DNA of 25,358 nt from a virus (Duplodnaviria; Heunggongvirae; Uroviricota; Caudoviricetes). The stretch is taken from the IMG/VR virus record IMGVR_UViG_2706794668_000002; one strand, written 5' to 3'. Both the position numbers and the translations under genes were made by a program. The number at the start of each line of letters is the position of its first letter. The stretch's first letter is position 1. Of the stretch, positions 20,851-25,358 are shown piece by piece. The notes beneath the pieces were generated by a model, which had not been told where the DNA came from, made no database searches, and saw nothing but the letters and a program-made list of their open reading frames with translations.

Positions 20851-20861
20851 GTGGGGTGAAT

Positions 20862-23800
20862 ATGGCAGTAAAGATTTCAGGTGTACTGAAAGACGGCACA
20901 GGAAAACCGGTACAGAACTGCACAATCCAGCTGAAAGCAAAACGTAACAGCACCACGGTGGTGGTGAACACGCTGGCCTCAGAAAATCCGGATGAAGCCG
21001 GGCGTTACAGCATGGACGTTGAGTACGGTCAGTACAGCGTTATTCTGTTGGTGGAAGGATTCCCGCCGTCACATGCCGGGACCATCACCGTGTATGAAGA
21101 TTCCCGACCCGGTACGCTGAATGATTTTCTCGGTGCCATGACGGAGGATGATGCCCGTCCGGAGGCACTGCGCCGTTTTGAGCTGATGGTGGAAGAGGTG
21201 GCGCGTAACGCGTCCGCGGTGGCACAGAACACGGCAGCCGCGAAGAAATCAGCCAGCGATGCCAGCACATCAGCCCGTGAGGCGGCAACCCATGCGACTG
21301 ATGCTGCAGATTCAGCACGTGCAGCCAGCACGTCAGCCGGACAGGCCGCTTCGTCGGCTCAGTCAGCGTCTTCCAGCGCAGGAACGGCATCAACAAAGGC
21401 CACTGAAGCCTCAAAAAGTGCTGCCGCTGCAGAGTCCTCAAAAAGCGCGGCGGCTACCAGTGCCGGTGCGGCGAAAACGTTAGAAACGAATGCGGCAGCG
21501 TCACAACAATCAGCAGCCACTTCTGCATCCACCGCGACCACGAAAGCGTCAGAAGCTGCCACCTCAGCCCGGGATGCGTCGGCTTCAAAAGAGGCGGCAA
21601 AATCATCAGAAACGAACGCATCATCAAGCGCCAGTAGCGCAGCTTCCTCGGCGACGGCGGCTGCAAATTCTGCGAAGGCGGCCAAAACGTCCGAGACGAA
21701 CGCCAGGTCTTCTGAAACGGCAGCGGGACAGAGTGCCTCAGCTGCGGCAGGCTCAAAAACAGCGGCTGCGTCGTCTGCCAGCGCCGCGTCAACAAGTGCC
21801 GGGCAGGCCTCAGCCAGTGCCACCGCCGCCGGAAAATCGGCAGAAAGCGCCGCATCATCCGCTTCAACAGCCACAACGAAGGCTGGCGAAGCCACTGAGC
21901 AGGCCACGGCAGCAGCGAGGTCAGCTTCCGCAGCGAAGACATCCGAAACGAACGCGAAAGCGTCGGAAACCCGTGCAGAATCCTCAAAAACGGCTGCCGC
22001 ATCGTCCGCCAGTTCGGCGGCGTCATCGGCATCATCGGCGTCTGCTTCAAAAGATGAGGCGACCAGACAGGCGTCAGCAGCGAAGGGCAGCGCCACGACG
22101 GCATCCACGAAGGCGACAGAGGCTGCTGGTAGTGCGACGGCAGCAGCTCAGAGCAAAAGTACGGCGGAATCTGCAGCAACGCGCGCTGAGACAGCGGCAA
22201 AACGGGCAGAGGATATTGCATCCGCCGTGGCGCTTGAGGATGCGAGCACGACGAAAAAGGGGATAGTACAGCTCAGTAGTGCGACTAACAGCACTTCCGA
22301 GTCACTGGCGGCAACACCAAAAGCCGTTAAGGCCGCGTATGACCTGGCTAACGGGAAATACACCGCACAGGATGCAACGACAGCACAGAAAGGGATAATC
22401 CAGCTAAGCAGCGCGACCAACAGCACGTCTGAAACGCTGGCGGCAACGCCAAAGGCAGTAAAAGCAGCCAATGACAATGCTGAGAAACGTCTGCAGAAAG
22501 ATCAGAACGGTGCGGATATCCCTGGCAAAGACACCTTTACGAAAAATATTGGTGCCTGCCGTGCCTTCGGTGGGTCAGTAAGCACAACAACAGGAAACTG
22601 GACGACTGCACAGTTTATCGAGTGGCTGGATTCTCAGGGAGCATTTAACCATCCATACTGGATGTGCAAGGGTTCCTGGTCTTATGGCAATAATAAAATC
22701 ATTACTGATACTGGCTGCGGTAATATTCATCTCGCCGGAGCTGTCATTGAAGTAATGGGGATAAAGTCAGCGATGACGATCCGCATTACCACTCCGACCA
22801 CATCCAGCGGTGGCGGAACAACCAACGCCCAGTTTACCTATATTAATCACGGAACAGATTATTCACCTGGCTGGCGAAGGGACTATAACTCCAGAAATAA
22901 GCCAACGGCATCAGAGATCGGGGCGCTACCGTCAGGTGGAACAGCAGTATCATCAGTTAATCTGGCTTCAAAAGGTCGGGTAGCCGCGCTGACAGACAAT
23001 ACGCAGGGGGCAGCAGGTCTTGAGTTATACGAGGTGTATAACAACGGATATCCAACAGCGTATGGAAATATCATTCACCTGAAAGGGATGACAGCCGTTG
23101 GCGAAGGTGAGTTACTCATCGGCTGGAGTGGTACAAGCGGTGCTCATGCTCCGGCATTTATTCGTTCACGACGGGATACGACCGACGCAAACTGGTCGCC
23201 GTGGGCGCAGCTTTACACCTCGGCTCATCCTCCTGCAGAGTTTTATCCAGTCGGTGCACCAATCCCGTGGCCATCAGATACCGTTCCGTCTGGTTATGCC
23301 CTGATGCAGGGGCAGACTTTTGACAAATCTGCTTACCCGAAACTTGCAGCCGCTTATCCGTCAGGCGTGATCCCTGATATGCGTGGCTGGACGATTAAGG
23401 GCAAGCCCGCCAGTGGTCGTGCCGTATTGTCTCAGGAACAGGATGGCATTAAATCGCACACCCACAGCGCCAGCGCATCCAGTACGGATTTGGGGACGAA
23501 AACCACATCGTCGTTTGATTACGGCACTAAATCCACGAATAACACCGGGGCGCATACGCACAGTCTGAGCGGCTCTACAAGTTCAGCTGGGGCCCACCAA
23601 CATAGTCAGACTGGGCCCAGAACGAATAGCGGGAGTCAACCTACTGGAATGTTTCCGGCAGGGAGTACTCAAGTTAGCGGGACTAATCAGGTTGGTATCA
23701 GTGGCTCATTAACCAGTGGCACCTCCCAATGGGTAGGTAAATCATCTTCAGAAGGAAACCATACACACTCACTGTCCGGCACAGCAGCATCTGCGGGTGC

Positions 23801-23945
23801 ACACGCGCATACTGTCGGTATTGGTGCTCATACGCACTCTGTTGCGATTGGTTCACATGGACACACCATCACCGTTAACGCTGCTGGTAACGCGGAAAAC
23901 ACCGTCAAAAACATCGCATTTAACTATATTGTGAGGCTCGCATAA
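20862..23945 (+). CDS. stf: side tail fiber protein Stf, full length, with an expanded Ala/Ser/Thr-rich repeat shaft and a His-rich C-terminal tip
   Basis: [60 protein letters not shown]... matches the lambda Stf N-terminus. The track ORF starts at GTG 20856; I prefer ATG 20862. The C-terminus ...[31 protein letters not shown] matches the lambda Stf end. Stop overlaps the tfa start (TAATG). Confidence 0.9.
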
Positions 23946-24526
23946 TGGCATTCAGAATGAGTGAACAAGCACGGACCATAAAAATTTATAACCTGCTGGC
24001 CGGAACTAATGAATTTATTGGTGAAGGTGACGCATATATTCCGCCTCATACAGGTCTGCCTGCAAACAGTACCGATATTGCACCGCCAGATATTCCGGCT
24101 GGTTTCGTGGCTGTTTTCAACAGTGATGAGTCATCGTGGCATCTCGTTGAAGATCATCGGGGTAAAACGGTTTATGACGTGGCTTCCGGCGACGCGTTAT
24201 TTATTTCTGAACTCGGCTCATTACCGGAAAATGTCACCTGGTTATCCCCGGAAGGGGAGTTTCAGAAGTGGAACGGCACAGCCTGGGTGAAGGATACGGA
24301 AGCAGAAAAACTGTTCCGGATCCGGGAGGCGGAAGAAACAAAAAACAGCCTGATGCAGGTAGCCAGTGAGCATATAGCGCCGCTTCAGGATGCTGTGGAT
24401 CTGGAGATCGCAACGGAGAAAGAAACCTTGTTGCTGGAAGCTTGGAAAAAGTATCGGGTGTTGCTGAACCGTGTTGATACATCAACTGCACCGGATATTG
24501 AATGGCCAGTAGCACCTATAGGGTAA
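23945..24526 (+). CDS. tfa: tail fiber assembly protein Tfa
   Basis: 193-aa [82 protein letters not shown]... matches lambda Tfa as I recall it. Confidence 0.93.
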
Positions 24527-24610
24527 ATTCGTAATGATTACCTAAATACGTTATTCTTTTGTTAAAAAAGTGATTTTGCTATAGGTAGGGAGTATGTTCT
24601 TGGATTAAGA

Positions 24611-24642
24611 ATAAAAAATCGCCATGAAAGAGCTTCATGGCG
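24611..24642 (-). terminator. intrinsic terminator for leftward transcription, convergent on tfa
   Basis: Perfect 9-bp stem CGCCATGAA / TTCATGGCG (24620-24628 and 24634-24642) with a 5-nt loop. On the minus strand it is followed by ATTTTTTAT (A-run 24613-24618 on the plus strand). Confidence 0.65.
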
Positions 24643-24791
24643 AGTACATAAACGTACAAAATGTGATGAAAGTAGAGTGGCGTAAGCCACTATATTAAGA
24701 TATGACAATAGCGAAGAAAAGTAAATAACATTTTATGGACGTTTAATTGTTAATTATAAAAACTAGAGTGCCCGATATTGTTTATCTTGCT

Positions 24792-24893
24792 TTAAAATAA
24801 TGTACTCAAACCAAATTTTTGAGCTAAAAGCTCAAATAATATAAATGCAATAATAATGTTTAATAAGACAATTAGCTTGCTTTGTATTTTCAT
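24792..24893 (-). CDS. candidate small hydrophobic protein (33 aa), speculative
   Basis: Minus-strand ATG at 24893 to TAA ending at 24792 gives MKIQSKLIVLLNIIIAFILFELLAQKFGLSTLF: basic N-terminus then an 18-20 residue hydrophobic stretch. A sigma70-like TTGACT (24956-24951), 17-nt spacer, TATTGT (24933-24928) lies upstream on the same strand, and the terminator at 24642-24611 lies downstream. No clear Shine-Dalgarno. AT-rich DNA inflates Ile/Leu/Phe codons, so this may be chance. Confidence 0.2.
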   Translation of the reverse strand: MKIQSKLIVLLNIIIAFILFELLAQKFGLSTLF

Positions 24894-25275
24894 TTCGGAA
24901 TACTGTTAAGTAACTTTGATGACCCTAACAATAGATCGGAATTTTCTTAGAGTCAATGGTCACTGTTTTTGCTTGCAAAGCAAATGTTTTGGTGGTTATA
25001 AGTCGTCTTAATATAGTCACGCATGCAACTTGTTCCATGCGGAGATTAAAGATTGGAATATAACGCGAAGATGGAATTAAATTACATTTGCAATAATTAA
25101 TTTATTATTACTCAATAATTACCGATATTATTATTGTAAATTAATCATTAGAATGCAAAAAGAAATGTAACGGCAAAATAAGAGGACGATAGCTGAGAAA
25201 AAAGCGTGCTTTCCCAATCTGGGGCAAATCACGTCTGAATGACACCTGAAAACAGGTGGTAGCCTCAAGAAGGCT

Positions 25276-25358
25276 GGTGATGCTGCCAACTTACTGATTT
25301 AGTGTATGATGGTGTTTTTGAGGTGCTCCAGTGGCTTCTGTTTCTATCAGCTGTCCCT
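25276..25358 (+). mobile_element. insA: IS1 left end (IRL and 5' leader; insA GTG start at 25331), element continues beyond window
   Basis: GGTGATGCTGCCAACTTACTGATTTAGTGTATGATGGTGTTTTTGAGGTGCTCCAGTGGCTTCTGTTTCTATCAGCTGTCCCT is the canonical IS1 left terminus as I recall it. GTG GCT TCT GTT TCT ATC AGC TGT CCC encodes the InsA start MASVSISCP. Confidence 0.88.

Follow-up and report, generated by a model that had tools for sequence, protein, structure and literature searches.

A moron cassette with a putative YncL-like membrane protein gene behind the tail-fibre-assembly gene of lambdoid Escherichia coli prophages

YncL is a small inner-membrane protein of Escherichia coli that is induced by heat and in minimal medium, and its production causes sublethal depolarisation of the membrane, phage-shock induction, reduced protein synthesis and condensation of the nucleoid (PMC12542507). 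It is also a candidate substrate of RseP (PMC10470546). In Salmonella, the yncL transcript (STM14_1932) was first catalogued as a small RNA (sRNA), STnc1110, which is sigma-S dependent (PMC5437024). In addition, yncL mRNA is contacted in RIL-seq (RNA interaction by ligation and sequencing) by KilS, an sRNA from the 3' untranslated region (UTR) of kilR in the Rac prophage (PMC8175672). Similar size and a single transmembrane helix are also found in YohP and in further small membrane proteins that E. coli induces under stress. YohP, like YncL, depolarises the membrane and condenses the nucleoid when produced (PMC12542507). Here we describe an AT-rich tract at positions 24527-25275 of IMG/VR virus record IMGVR_UViG_2706794668_000002, a stretch of 25,358 nucleotides from a lambdoid prophage (the window). 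Behind the tail-fibre-assembly gene tfa, this tract carries a 33-codon open reading frame (ORF) on the minus strand that is best described, from its sequence, as a divergent prophage-borne paralogue of yncL.

Phage morons near tail genes, in the sense of Hendrix and colleagues, are the other described system to which this locus is close. Such genes, for example lom and bor of lambda, gene product 15 (gp15) of HK97 and cor of phi80, N15 and HK022, often change the phage susceptibility or the behaviour of the lysogen. Like them, the 578-bp module at 24527-25104 is an extra gene with its own terminator and predicted promoter. It deviates in base composition, lies at the end of the tail-fibre region, is exchangeable between related phages and is predicted to encode a small membrane protein. 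No sequence relationship of its gene to lom, bor, gp15 or cor was found in PHROGs. By these features, the module can be taken as a classical moron.

Positions 24527-25104 are thus probably a self-contained moron, from which a leftward RNA of ~310 nt with its own promoter and terminator would encode a YncL-like membrane protein that alters the physiology of the lysogen. Three main alleles are distinguished below: A, that of the window; B, with ~80% DNA identity to A; and C, the third main allele. The elements of the unit, and the gene that precedes it, are as follows.

24527-25104, minus strand: whole leftward unit, a 578-bp AT-rich mobile module (moron) seen after tfa in several contexts at 80-99% identity
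24928-24956, minus strand: sigma-70-type promoter-like site, TTGACT, 17 nt, TATTGT, with C at -13 (scan and conservation)
24792-24893, minus strand: 33-codon gene for a putative YncL-like single-pass membrane peptide, MKIQSKLIVLLNIIIAFILFELLAQKFGLSTLF (ORF list, ratio of substitution rates, match to the YncL profile, AlphaFold2)
24692-24791, minus strand: proximal 3' UTR, variable, with several indels including one of 5 bp after the stop codon
24676-24691, minus strand: conserved hairpin AGUGGC-UUAC-GCCACU (predicted folds)
24644-24675, minus strand: conserved single-stranded spacer CUACUUUCAUCACAUUUUGUACGUUUAUGUAC, variable at 2 of 32 positions in 39 unique copies including the 80% allele
24609-24643, minus strand: Rho-independent terminator of the leftward transcript (scan and conservation)
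23945-24526, plus strand: tfa, tail fibre assembly, the last late gene (193-aa ORF; annotated as such in homologous records)

The 33-codon gene and its relationship to YncL

The ORF, at 24893-24792, and its peptide agree exactly with the preliminary description of this DNA, in which loss of the intact frame in relatives was named as a result that would speak against a gene. For this question, 84 copies were taken from genomes, IMG/VR contigs and metagenomes, and 39 unique copies were aligned. The frame is unbroken in all 84. They represent only seven versions of the ORF at the nucleotide level and four of the peptide, and the main alleles account for three of these four. Between A and B, the ORF differs by 18 substitutions in 102 nt, and these cause five amino-acid changes (V9I, I15F, F17L, E21K and S30Y). 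The nonsynonymous (dN) and synonymous (dS) substitution rates are 0.094 and 1.03 for this pair (dN/dS ~0.09), and 0.013 and 0.31 for A and C (dN/dS 0.04). When the 18 substitutions were placed at random, not one of 20,000 trials gave five or fewer amino-acid changes, and only 28% kept an open frame. In a comparison of the consensus sequences of the A and B groups, 19 columns of the ORF differ, of which 11 are at third, seven at first and one at second codon positions. Among the 39 unique copies, no indel falls in the ORF, against about 12 events in the 476 bases outside it; the 5-bp indel lies immediately 3' of the stop codon. Allele B keeps the frame and 28 of the 33 residues with synonymous sites near saturation. 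This pattern of substitutions and indels indicates that the 33-codon ORF is translated and under purifying selection.

The peptide is strongly suggestive of a membrane helix. Its best 18-residue Kyte-Doolittle window is 2.87, and AlphaFold2 predicts one helix over residues 2-26 with a mean pLDDT (predicted local distance difference test) of 86. The preliminary description had named as a possible refutation that AT-rich DNA gives such peptides trivially. In 2,000 dinucleotide-preserving shuffles of the tract, an equally hydrophobic ORF of at least 30 aa from an ATG appeared in 0.1%, and one with a window of at least 2.0 in 11%. Therefore, the hydrophobicity of the peptide is not a trivial product of AT-richness.

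Among the 18,950 models of NCBIfam, the sole match is NF000537, 'stress response membrane protein YncL' (E=1.3e-5, 25 bits, positions 1-28 of 30). Against this model, 25.0, 23.5 and 22.5 bits were obtained for the three alleles (E=1.3e-5 to 7.5e-5), and 68.6 for K-12 YncL (b4598, MNVSSRTVVLINFFAAVGLFTLISMRFGWFI). Since the curated cut-off of this equivalog is 35 bits, the peptide is not a YncL orthologue and is at most a divergent paralogue. In BLASTP, it aligns with K-12 YncL without gaps, with 11 of 28 residues identical (39%) and 18 of 28 similar (64%). The residues in common are M1, S5, [KR]6, L10, N12, A16, L19, F20, L22, [KR]26, F27 and G28, in the shared register M-x-[IV]-x-S-[KR]-x-[IV]-[VI]-L-[LI]-N-...-A-..-L-F-x-L-[IL]-..-[KR]-F-G. 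A hidden Markov model (HMM) built from 15 YncL orthologues gives the peptide 21.6 bits. None of 20,000 shuffled versions reaches this score, the highest being 12.8. When the same HMM was run on 1,942 ORFs of at least 20 aa from the phage loci, the 33-aa ORF came first and the runner-up had 5.5 bits. Conversely, an HMM of the phage alleles run on 4,096 ORFs of the chromosomal loci put all 26 yncL ORFs on top, at 15-25 bits, with the next at 6.0. The peptide and YncL are thus reciprocal best matches, with a gap of at least 9 bits to the next ORF. This example shows that, for very short proteins, divergent paralogues are hidden by curated 'equivalog' cut-offs.

A degenerate back-translated DNA pattern that covers the phage and yncL types was also scanned against several collections. 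In 596 Gb of species-representative genomes, it finds only chromosomal yncL, in Escherichia, Shigella, Citrobacter and Intestinirhabdus. Viral contigs give only the phage type plus one yncL, and in metagenome contigs a pattern restricted to Lys2 gives the phage type only. The exact peptide occurs in only two contigs, unnamed, among 15 billion predicted proteins, and 1.84 billion representative proteins hold nothing besides the peptide itself and one frameshifted variant. No meaningful match for the peptide was found in Pfam, PHROGs or PADLOC, and no phage paralogue is the subject, by title and abstract, of any of the 31 papers found on YncL.

The likeness to YncL (also Salmonella STM14_1932/STnc1110) extends from the single helix of 31-33 residues to the predicted expression of the gene, namely a monocistronic transcript that is short, as is its leader, and a promoter with C at -13 in the -10 element. 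However, the phage gene is prophage-borne next to tail-fibre-assembly sequence and was found in E. coli prophages only, while yncL lies in a conserved patD-yncL-ortT locus on the chromosomes of the four genera named above. The phage gene has no Shine-Dalgarno sequence, whereas chromosomal yncL has AAGGUGG. In contrast to YncL, the phage peptide has a C-terminus longer by two residues and an acidic or basic residue 21, and the long conserved 3' UTR of its gene has no counterpart at yncL. YohP differs further, as it has no detectable sequence similarity to the phage peptide and is a functional analogue only by way of YncL.

Transcription and carriage of the cassette

In the preliminary description, a sigma-70-like promoter was read at 24956-24928. 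Its hexamers and spacing are indeed present, but such matches occur at chance frequency (five, against 3.8 +/- 1.7 in shuffles), and therefore the promoter was judged by conservation and not by the scan. The -35 element TTGACT is identical in A and B, the 17-nt spacing is kept, and the -10 element is TATTGT or TATCGT, preceded by C. One of the 29 positions varies within the A group and three of 29 between A and B. Across alleles, the least variable segments are this -35/-10 region, the ORF and the terminator (3/29, 19/102 and 3/33 between A and B). The leader (9/34), the proximal 3' UTR (25/91) and the DNA between terminator and tfa (27/84) are more variable. From a predicted start near 24921, the leader would measure ~28 nt and the transcript ~310 nt. 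Of sigma-S dependence or stress induction, the only sign here is the C at -13. On the other strand, no terminator was found in 24300-25358. Since tfa is followed by no plus-strand terminator, antiterminated late transcription would cross the cassette antisense, which suggests that the unit is expressed in the lysogen and subject to interference during lytic growth. As a whole, the proposal of a coherent leftward promoter, small ORF and terminator for a small membrane peptide is supported by the purifying selection, the conserved hexamers and terminator, and the homology to YncL.

Several points weigh against a translated, YncL-related gene. Diversity is low, with the three main protein alleles and seven nucleotide versions, and therefore the selection tests rest on few independent substitutions. 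One frameshifted copy, P0002, is seen in two Logan contigs; it is a 43-aa peptide variant that arises by the loss of 1 nt in an A5 run at codons 25-27, and this may reflect either rare inactivation or a sequencing error in the homopolymer. With 25 against 35 bits, the peptide falls short of the curated YncL cut-off, and since the match spans a hydrophobic peptide of 28 residues, convergence is conceivable. The promoter match is weak (9/12) and of a frequency expected by chance in AT-rich DNA. On the translation side, the main weakness is the absence of a Shine-Dalgarno sequence upstream of the ATG (uuccgaaAUG). Furthermore, acquired AT-rich DNA is often silenced by H-NS.

The right part of the window contains stf (20856-23945) followed by tfa, with which the leftward unit is convergent. 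The G+C content is 0.28-0.34 across 24500-25249, as against 0.46-0.64 in the tail-fibre genes on the left, in agreement with the early observation that the tract 24527-25275 is AT-rich; it drops from ~0.5 past tfa. It had also been noted that the tract has no ORF of 60 aa or more on either strand, and the longest found is one of 52 aa, 25131-25289 on the minus strand, which runs into insertion sequence IS1. The right edge of the tract is at 25275 because the left end of IS1 begins at 25276. A near-identical copy in E. coli strain 104 has the order stf, tfa, tract, IS1A, AraC-family regulator gene, IS2 remnants, ybhB and bioA, which places the prophage at att-lambda and the tract in the position of the lambda b region. 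The att-lambda prophage of REL606 does not contain the module.

Conservation in relatives, on which the preliminary description had made its proposal depend, is broad. The tract is found at 98.5-99.5% identity in the temperate phages mEp332, PhiR70_1 and ev099, where the sequence goes on for ~750 bp beyond it to an AraC-family gene and then to int and xis. Of 5,426 complete E. coli genomes, 828 (~15%) contain the segment 24600-24960, with the ORF and the 3' region, on chromosomes only and in up to four copies per genome (~940 in all), and the module had no match on plasmids. Carriers include APEC O2-211, NCTC9008 and ETEC isolates. Among the matches listed, no feature is annotated under this segment by PGAP (the Prokaryotic Genome Annotation Pipeline). 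The module occurs at att-lambda, at ydfJ, at serU/yodB and next to sitABCD, and homology beyond 25104 depends on the context. All inspected copies are next to tail-fibre-assembly sequence. An intact tfa immediately precedes each of them but the B allele, which is placed between tfa fragments, with a major facilitator superfamily transporter gene and the sit operon nearby. Because the 578-bp boundaries are shared in these different contexts, the module behaves as a discrete mobile cassette.

Two side observations concern the way such cassettes are exchanged. In the ydfJ-site context (L005 4563-4700) and in that of the B allele (L006 4546-4645), an orphan second tfa 3' fragment follows the cassette in the same orientation, which suggests that the cassette moves via recombination within tfa 3' ends. 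In O26 strain RM8426 (L008 803-2803), the prophage-end arm that lies to the right of the module in the window comes after a group of three genes for DUF1076 (NleG-type) effectors, with uspF as neighbour. Hence the arm is the mark of a cargo locus whose content can be exchanged, with effectors in phages of the enterohaemorrhagic E. coli type and the YncL-like gene elsewhere.

A course of events can be proposed for the moron with a YncL-like gene. The cassette, which has the last late gene tfa on one side and the end of the prophage on the other and is read leftward against the late operon, would produce its ~310-nt RNA from a sigma-70/sigma-S-like promoter (24956-28) to the intrinsic terminator (24643-09). 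Expression would come from the repressed prophage, and convergent late transcription would silence it in lytic growth. The RNA would encode a 33-residue protein with one transmembrane helix, a putative paralogue of stress-induced YncL, which may insert into the inner membrane N-in/C-out with K2 and K6 inside. It might then lower the membrane potential as YncL does, or bind a membrane partner via the invariant intramembrane Asn12 and the C-terminal [KR]-F-G. As a result, the energetics, the stress physiology or the susceptibility to other phages of the lysogen could be changed. By analogy with YncL, the function would be membrane depolarisation and a stress response. The last ~95 nt would probably add an RNA-level function, either in stability or processing or as a 3' UTR-derived sRNA.

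The kind of element is known, both as a moron and as a family of small membrane proteins, and this member is new in that it has no PGAP annotation among the matches listed and no PHROGs or Pfam family. A gene on which purifying selection is evident is left unannotated in about one of seven complete E. coli genomes. It joins two active fields, phage morons with lysogenic conversion and bacterial small membrane proteins. Since YncL depolarises the membrane and triggers the phage-shock response, a phage-carried copy suggests that prophages exploit that physiology. With natural alleles one to five residues apart and the lysogenising phages mEp332, PhiR70_1 and ev099, the idea is directly testable. 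The gene is widespread and solid, and hardly a surprise.

The 3' end of the transcript and other readings

The strong intrinsic terminator that had been placed at 24642-24611 is present at 24643-24609, so that the earlier position was essentially correct. Its stem at 24643-24619 has ten perfect pairs and a G.U, with a loop of 3-5 nt, and is followed by TTTTTTATT. The stem is invariant save for a change of G.U to A-U and for the closing pair, and the T-run has 5-7 T in allele A and is TTTCTT in B and C. Upstream of it, the spacer 24644-24675 is unpaired in the consensus fold except for a weak 4-bp stem, and is a candidate seed or processing element. In the stem of the hairpin, two independent changes (24686 C>U and 24678 A>G) give G.U pairs in the leftward RNA and A.C mismatches on the other strand; such wobble-only changes fit the leftward RNA strand. 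The 3' UTR folds far better than its shuffles (z = -5.2). The last ~95 nt, that is hairpin, spacer and terminator, differ at 8 of 90 positions between A and B and are more conserved than the ORF. Because this conservation exceeds the need of a terminator, it points to an RNA-level role, in stability or processing or as a 3' UTR-derived sRNA. These are hints of such a role.

On this ground, the locus could be a dual-function or mainly RNA-level element, whose core would be the 3' ~95 nt as an Hfq-type 3' UTR-derived sRNA and whose peptide would perhaps be minor. We consider this unlikely, although no other rival survives so well. No other part of the module is as conserved as the 3' block, which is well ahead of the ORF (19/102) and the proximal 3' UTR, and the few changes in its spacer, the folding and the wobble-compatible pairs on the leftward RNA only are in line with it. 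The block and the ORF always occur together (827 and 828 genomes), and precedents exist in STnc1110 (PMC5437024) and in the pairing of KilS with yncL (PMC8175672). Against the sRNA criteria, the seed-like 32 nt are conserved, but the U-tail of U5-7 in A is UUUCUU in B and C. Compensatory double changes or covarying pairs are not found, and each stem offers only 0-2 informative sites. When the spacer was scanned, in a limited search, for duplexes with the yncL region of K-12 and with its own mRNA, no signal rose above background. Rfam, a search of which had been suggested as a check, has no match to the unit and gives only IS009 within tfa and a tRNA-Ser-like fragment in relatives. Moreover, selection acts at the protein level, so the ORF is not incidental. 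For this reason, 'sRNA', which was among the first suggestions, is not the whole story, while the conserved 3' ~95 nt could have an RNA function besides. KilS, SgrS and AzuCR, prophage 3' UTR-derived or dual-function RNAs, resemble the unit in that a small-protein mRNA ends in a conserved hairpin, a single strand and a terminator; this likeness is one of predicted architecture, and the unit differs in having no Rfam family.

A more specific form of this idea is a dual-function RNA in which the peptide tunes the membrane potential, for stress tolerance or to block the DNA entry or the replication of superinfecting phages, and the 3' ~95 nt act in trans as an sRNA on host transcripts. We hold it to be decidedly unlikely. 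If true, it would be a previously unseen lysogenic-conversion function in ~15% of E. coli.

The suggestion of a type I toxin, with a membrane-toxin peptide whose translation is checked by an antisense or divergent sRNA, fares worse and is very unlikely. Such loci are often carried by prophages. Hok, TisB, Ldr, Ibs, ShoB, ZorO and DinQ are, like the phage peptide, small and hydrophobic and often found on mobile elements, and the peptide also has a basic N-terminus. In addition, the membrane is depolarised if the homologue YncL is made out of context, but this effect is reported as sublethal (PMC12542507). At the locus, however, no antisense unit was found. The stretch 24300-25358 lacks a plus-strand terminator, as mentioned, and the sole plus-strand promoter-like site that faces the ORF (24702-31) loses its -35 element in allele B. 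The predicted leader is short (~28 nt) and has no fold-back structure as in the hok, tisB and zor mRNAs. There is no match to Pfam, to an NCBIfam toxin, to PADLOC, to PHROGs or to an Rfam antitoxin.

Finally, a non-functional leftover, that is decaying cargo or a spacer at the prophage end with an ORF intact because its copies are young, is hardly credible: most copies are 96-99% identical and intactness alone therefore says little, the right-hand piece of the tract does stem from a junction that IS1 has truncated and no annotation pipeline calls a gene here, but the 80% allele keeps frame and residues despite its near-saturated synonymous sites, other small ORFs are broken in that allele save a 24-codon plus-strand ORF with nonsynonymous change only, the similarity to YncL is specific, and the same module boundaries recur in at least four prophage contexts.

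Minor ORFs, palindromes and the right-hand 170 bp

The remaining features of the tract are listed here.

24818-24836, no strand: perfect 8-bp palindrome TTTGAGCT/AGCTCAAA with a 3-nt loop AAA, inside the ORF at codons 20-26
25105-25190, no strand: AT-rich linker of the serU/att-lambda type context only, present in L001-L004 and L087; it diverges from the ydfJ and sit contexts at 25104
25191-25275, no strand: first 85 bp of a prophage-end arm of ~200 bp, which recurs at the ends of many other prophages
25276-25358, plus strand: left end of IS1 (sequence; IS1A transposase annotated at the same junction in NZ_CP029164)

Other ORFs of the region were rejected. The 37-aa ORF 25038-24925, for which PhiR70_1 has an annotation, lacks its ATG or contains stops in other alleles, stops are present in the 48-aa ORF 24708-24562, and plus-strand ORFs of 31-35 aa are interrupted by stops. 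The 24-codon plus-strand ORF 24624-24698 stays open with all five changes nonsynonymous, and survives only because it is located in the ultra-conserved block. An ORF of 52-56 aa annotated in ev099 spans the end-arm element and is cut here by IS1.

The palindrome inside the ORF is perfect, as had been noted, but its position is 24818-24836 and not 24808-24826, and its loop is AAA and not AA. It is not kept in the minus-strand RNA of allele B, where two arm positions change along with E21K, and is probably incidental. A second, perfect 7-bp palindrome, TTTGCTT-GCA-AAGCAAA, is found at 24968-24984 just upstream of the -35 element. It is kept in A and C and not in B, and could be an allele-specific operator or chance.

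Two observations were made in the tail-fibre genes. Rfam family IS009 (RF02111) matches over its full length at 24288-24486 on the plus strand (218 bits), entirely within the tfa coding sequence; the 'RNA family' is here the conserved 3' part of tail-fibre-assembly genes. The middle of stf (21359-22266) is of low complexity and rich in Ala and Ser, and the ORFs of 249-258 aa in its other frames or on the opposite strand are composition artefacts.

The proposal that the tract is the remnant of deleted b-region genes does not hold for the ORF module 24527-25104, and holds in part for 25105-25275, the beginning of an old prophage-end arm cut by IS1. In uninterrupted relatives, the arm abuts a tRNA-Ser 3' fragment, which the annotated gene matches at 100% identity in 5,422 of the 5,426 genomes. 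Past this fragment, ~280 bp of serU-yodB flank follow, exactly as in the serU-integrated prophage of strain S51. The att-lambda phages PhiR70_1, ev099 and mEp332 thus carry the captured right junction of a serU-type prophage. This captured junction (L001 3665-4199; L087) is a fossil of aberrant excision or recombination. In the lineage of the window, IS1 replaces 550 bp relative to PhiR70_1 (L001 3750-4299), which looks like an IS1-associated adjacent deletion and not a simple insertion. The IS1 junction is shared with strain 104 (L004 4750-5517), and in further isolates from animals and humans the match extends through the first two bases of IS1. The next cargo between the captured junction and int is an AraC-family regulator gene (WP_000246058-like, 247 aa) with IS2 remnants on its flanks, which lies outside the window at L001 4506-5249 and L004 5724-6467.

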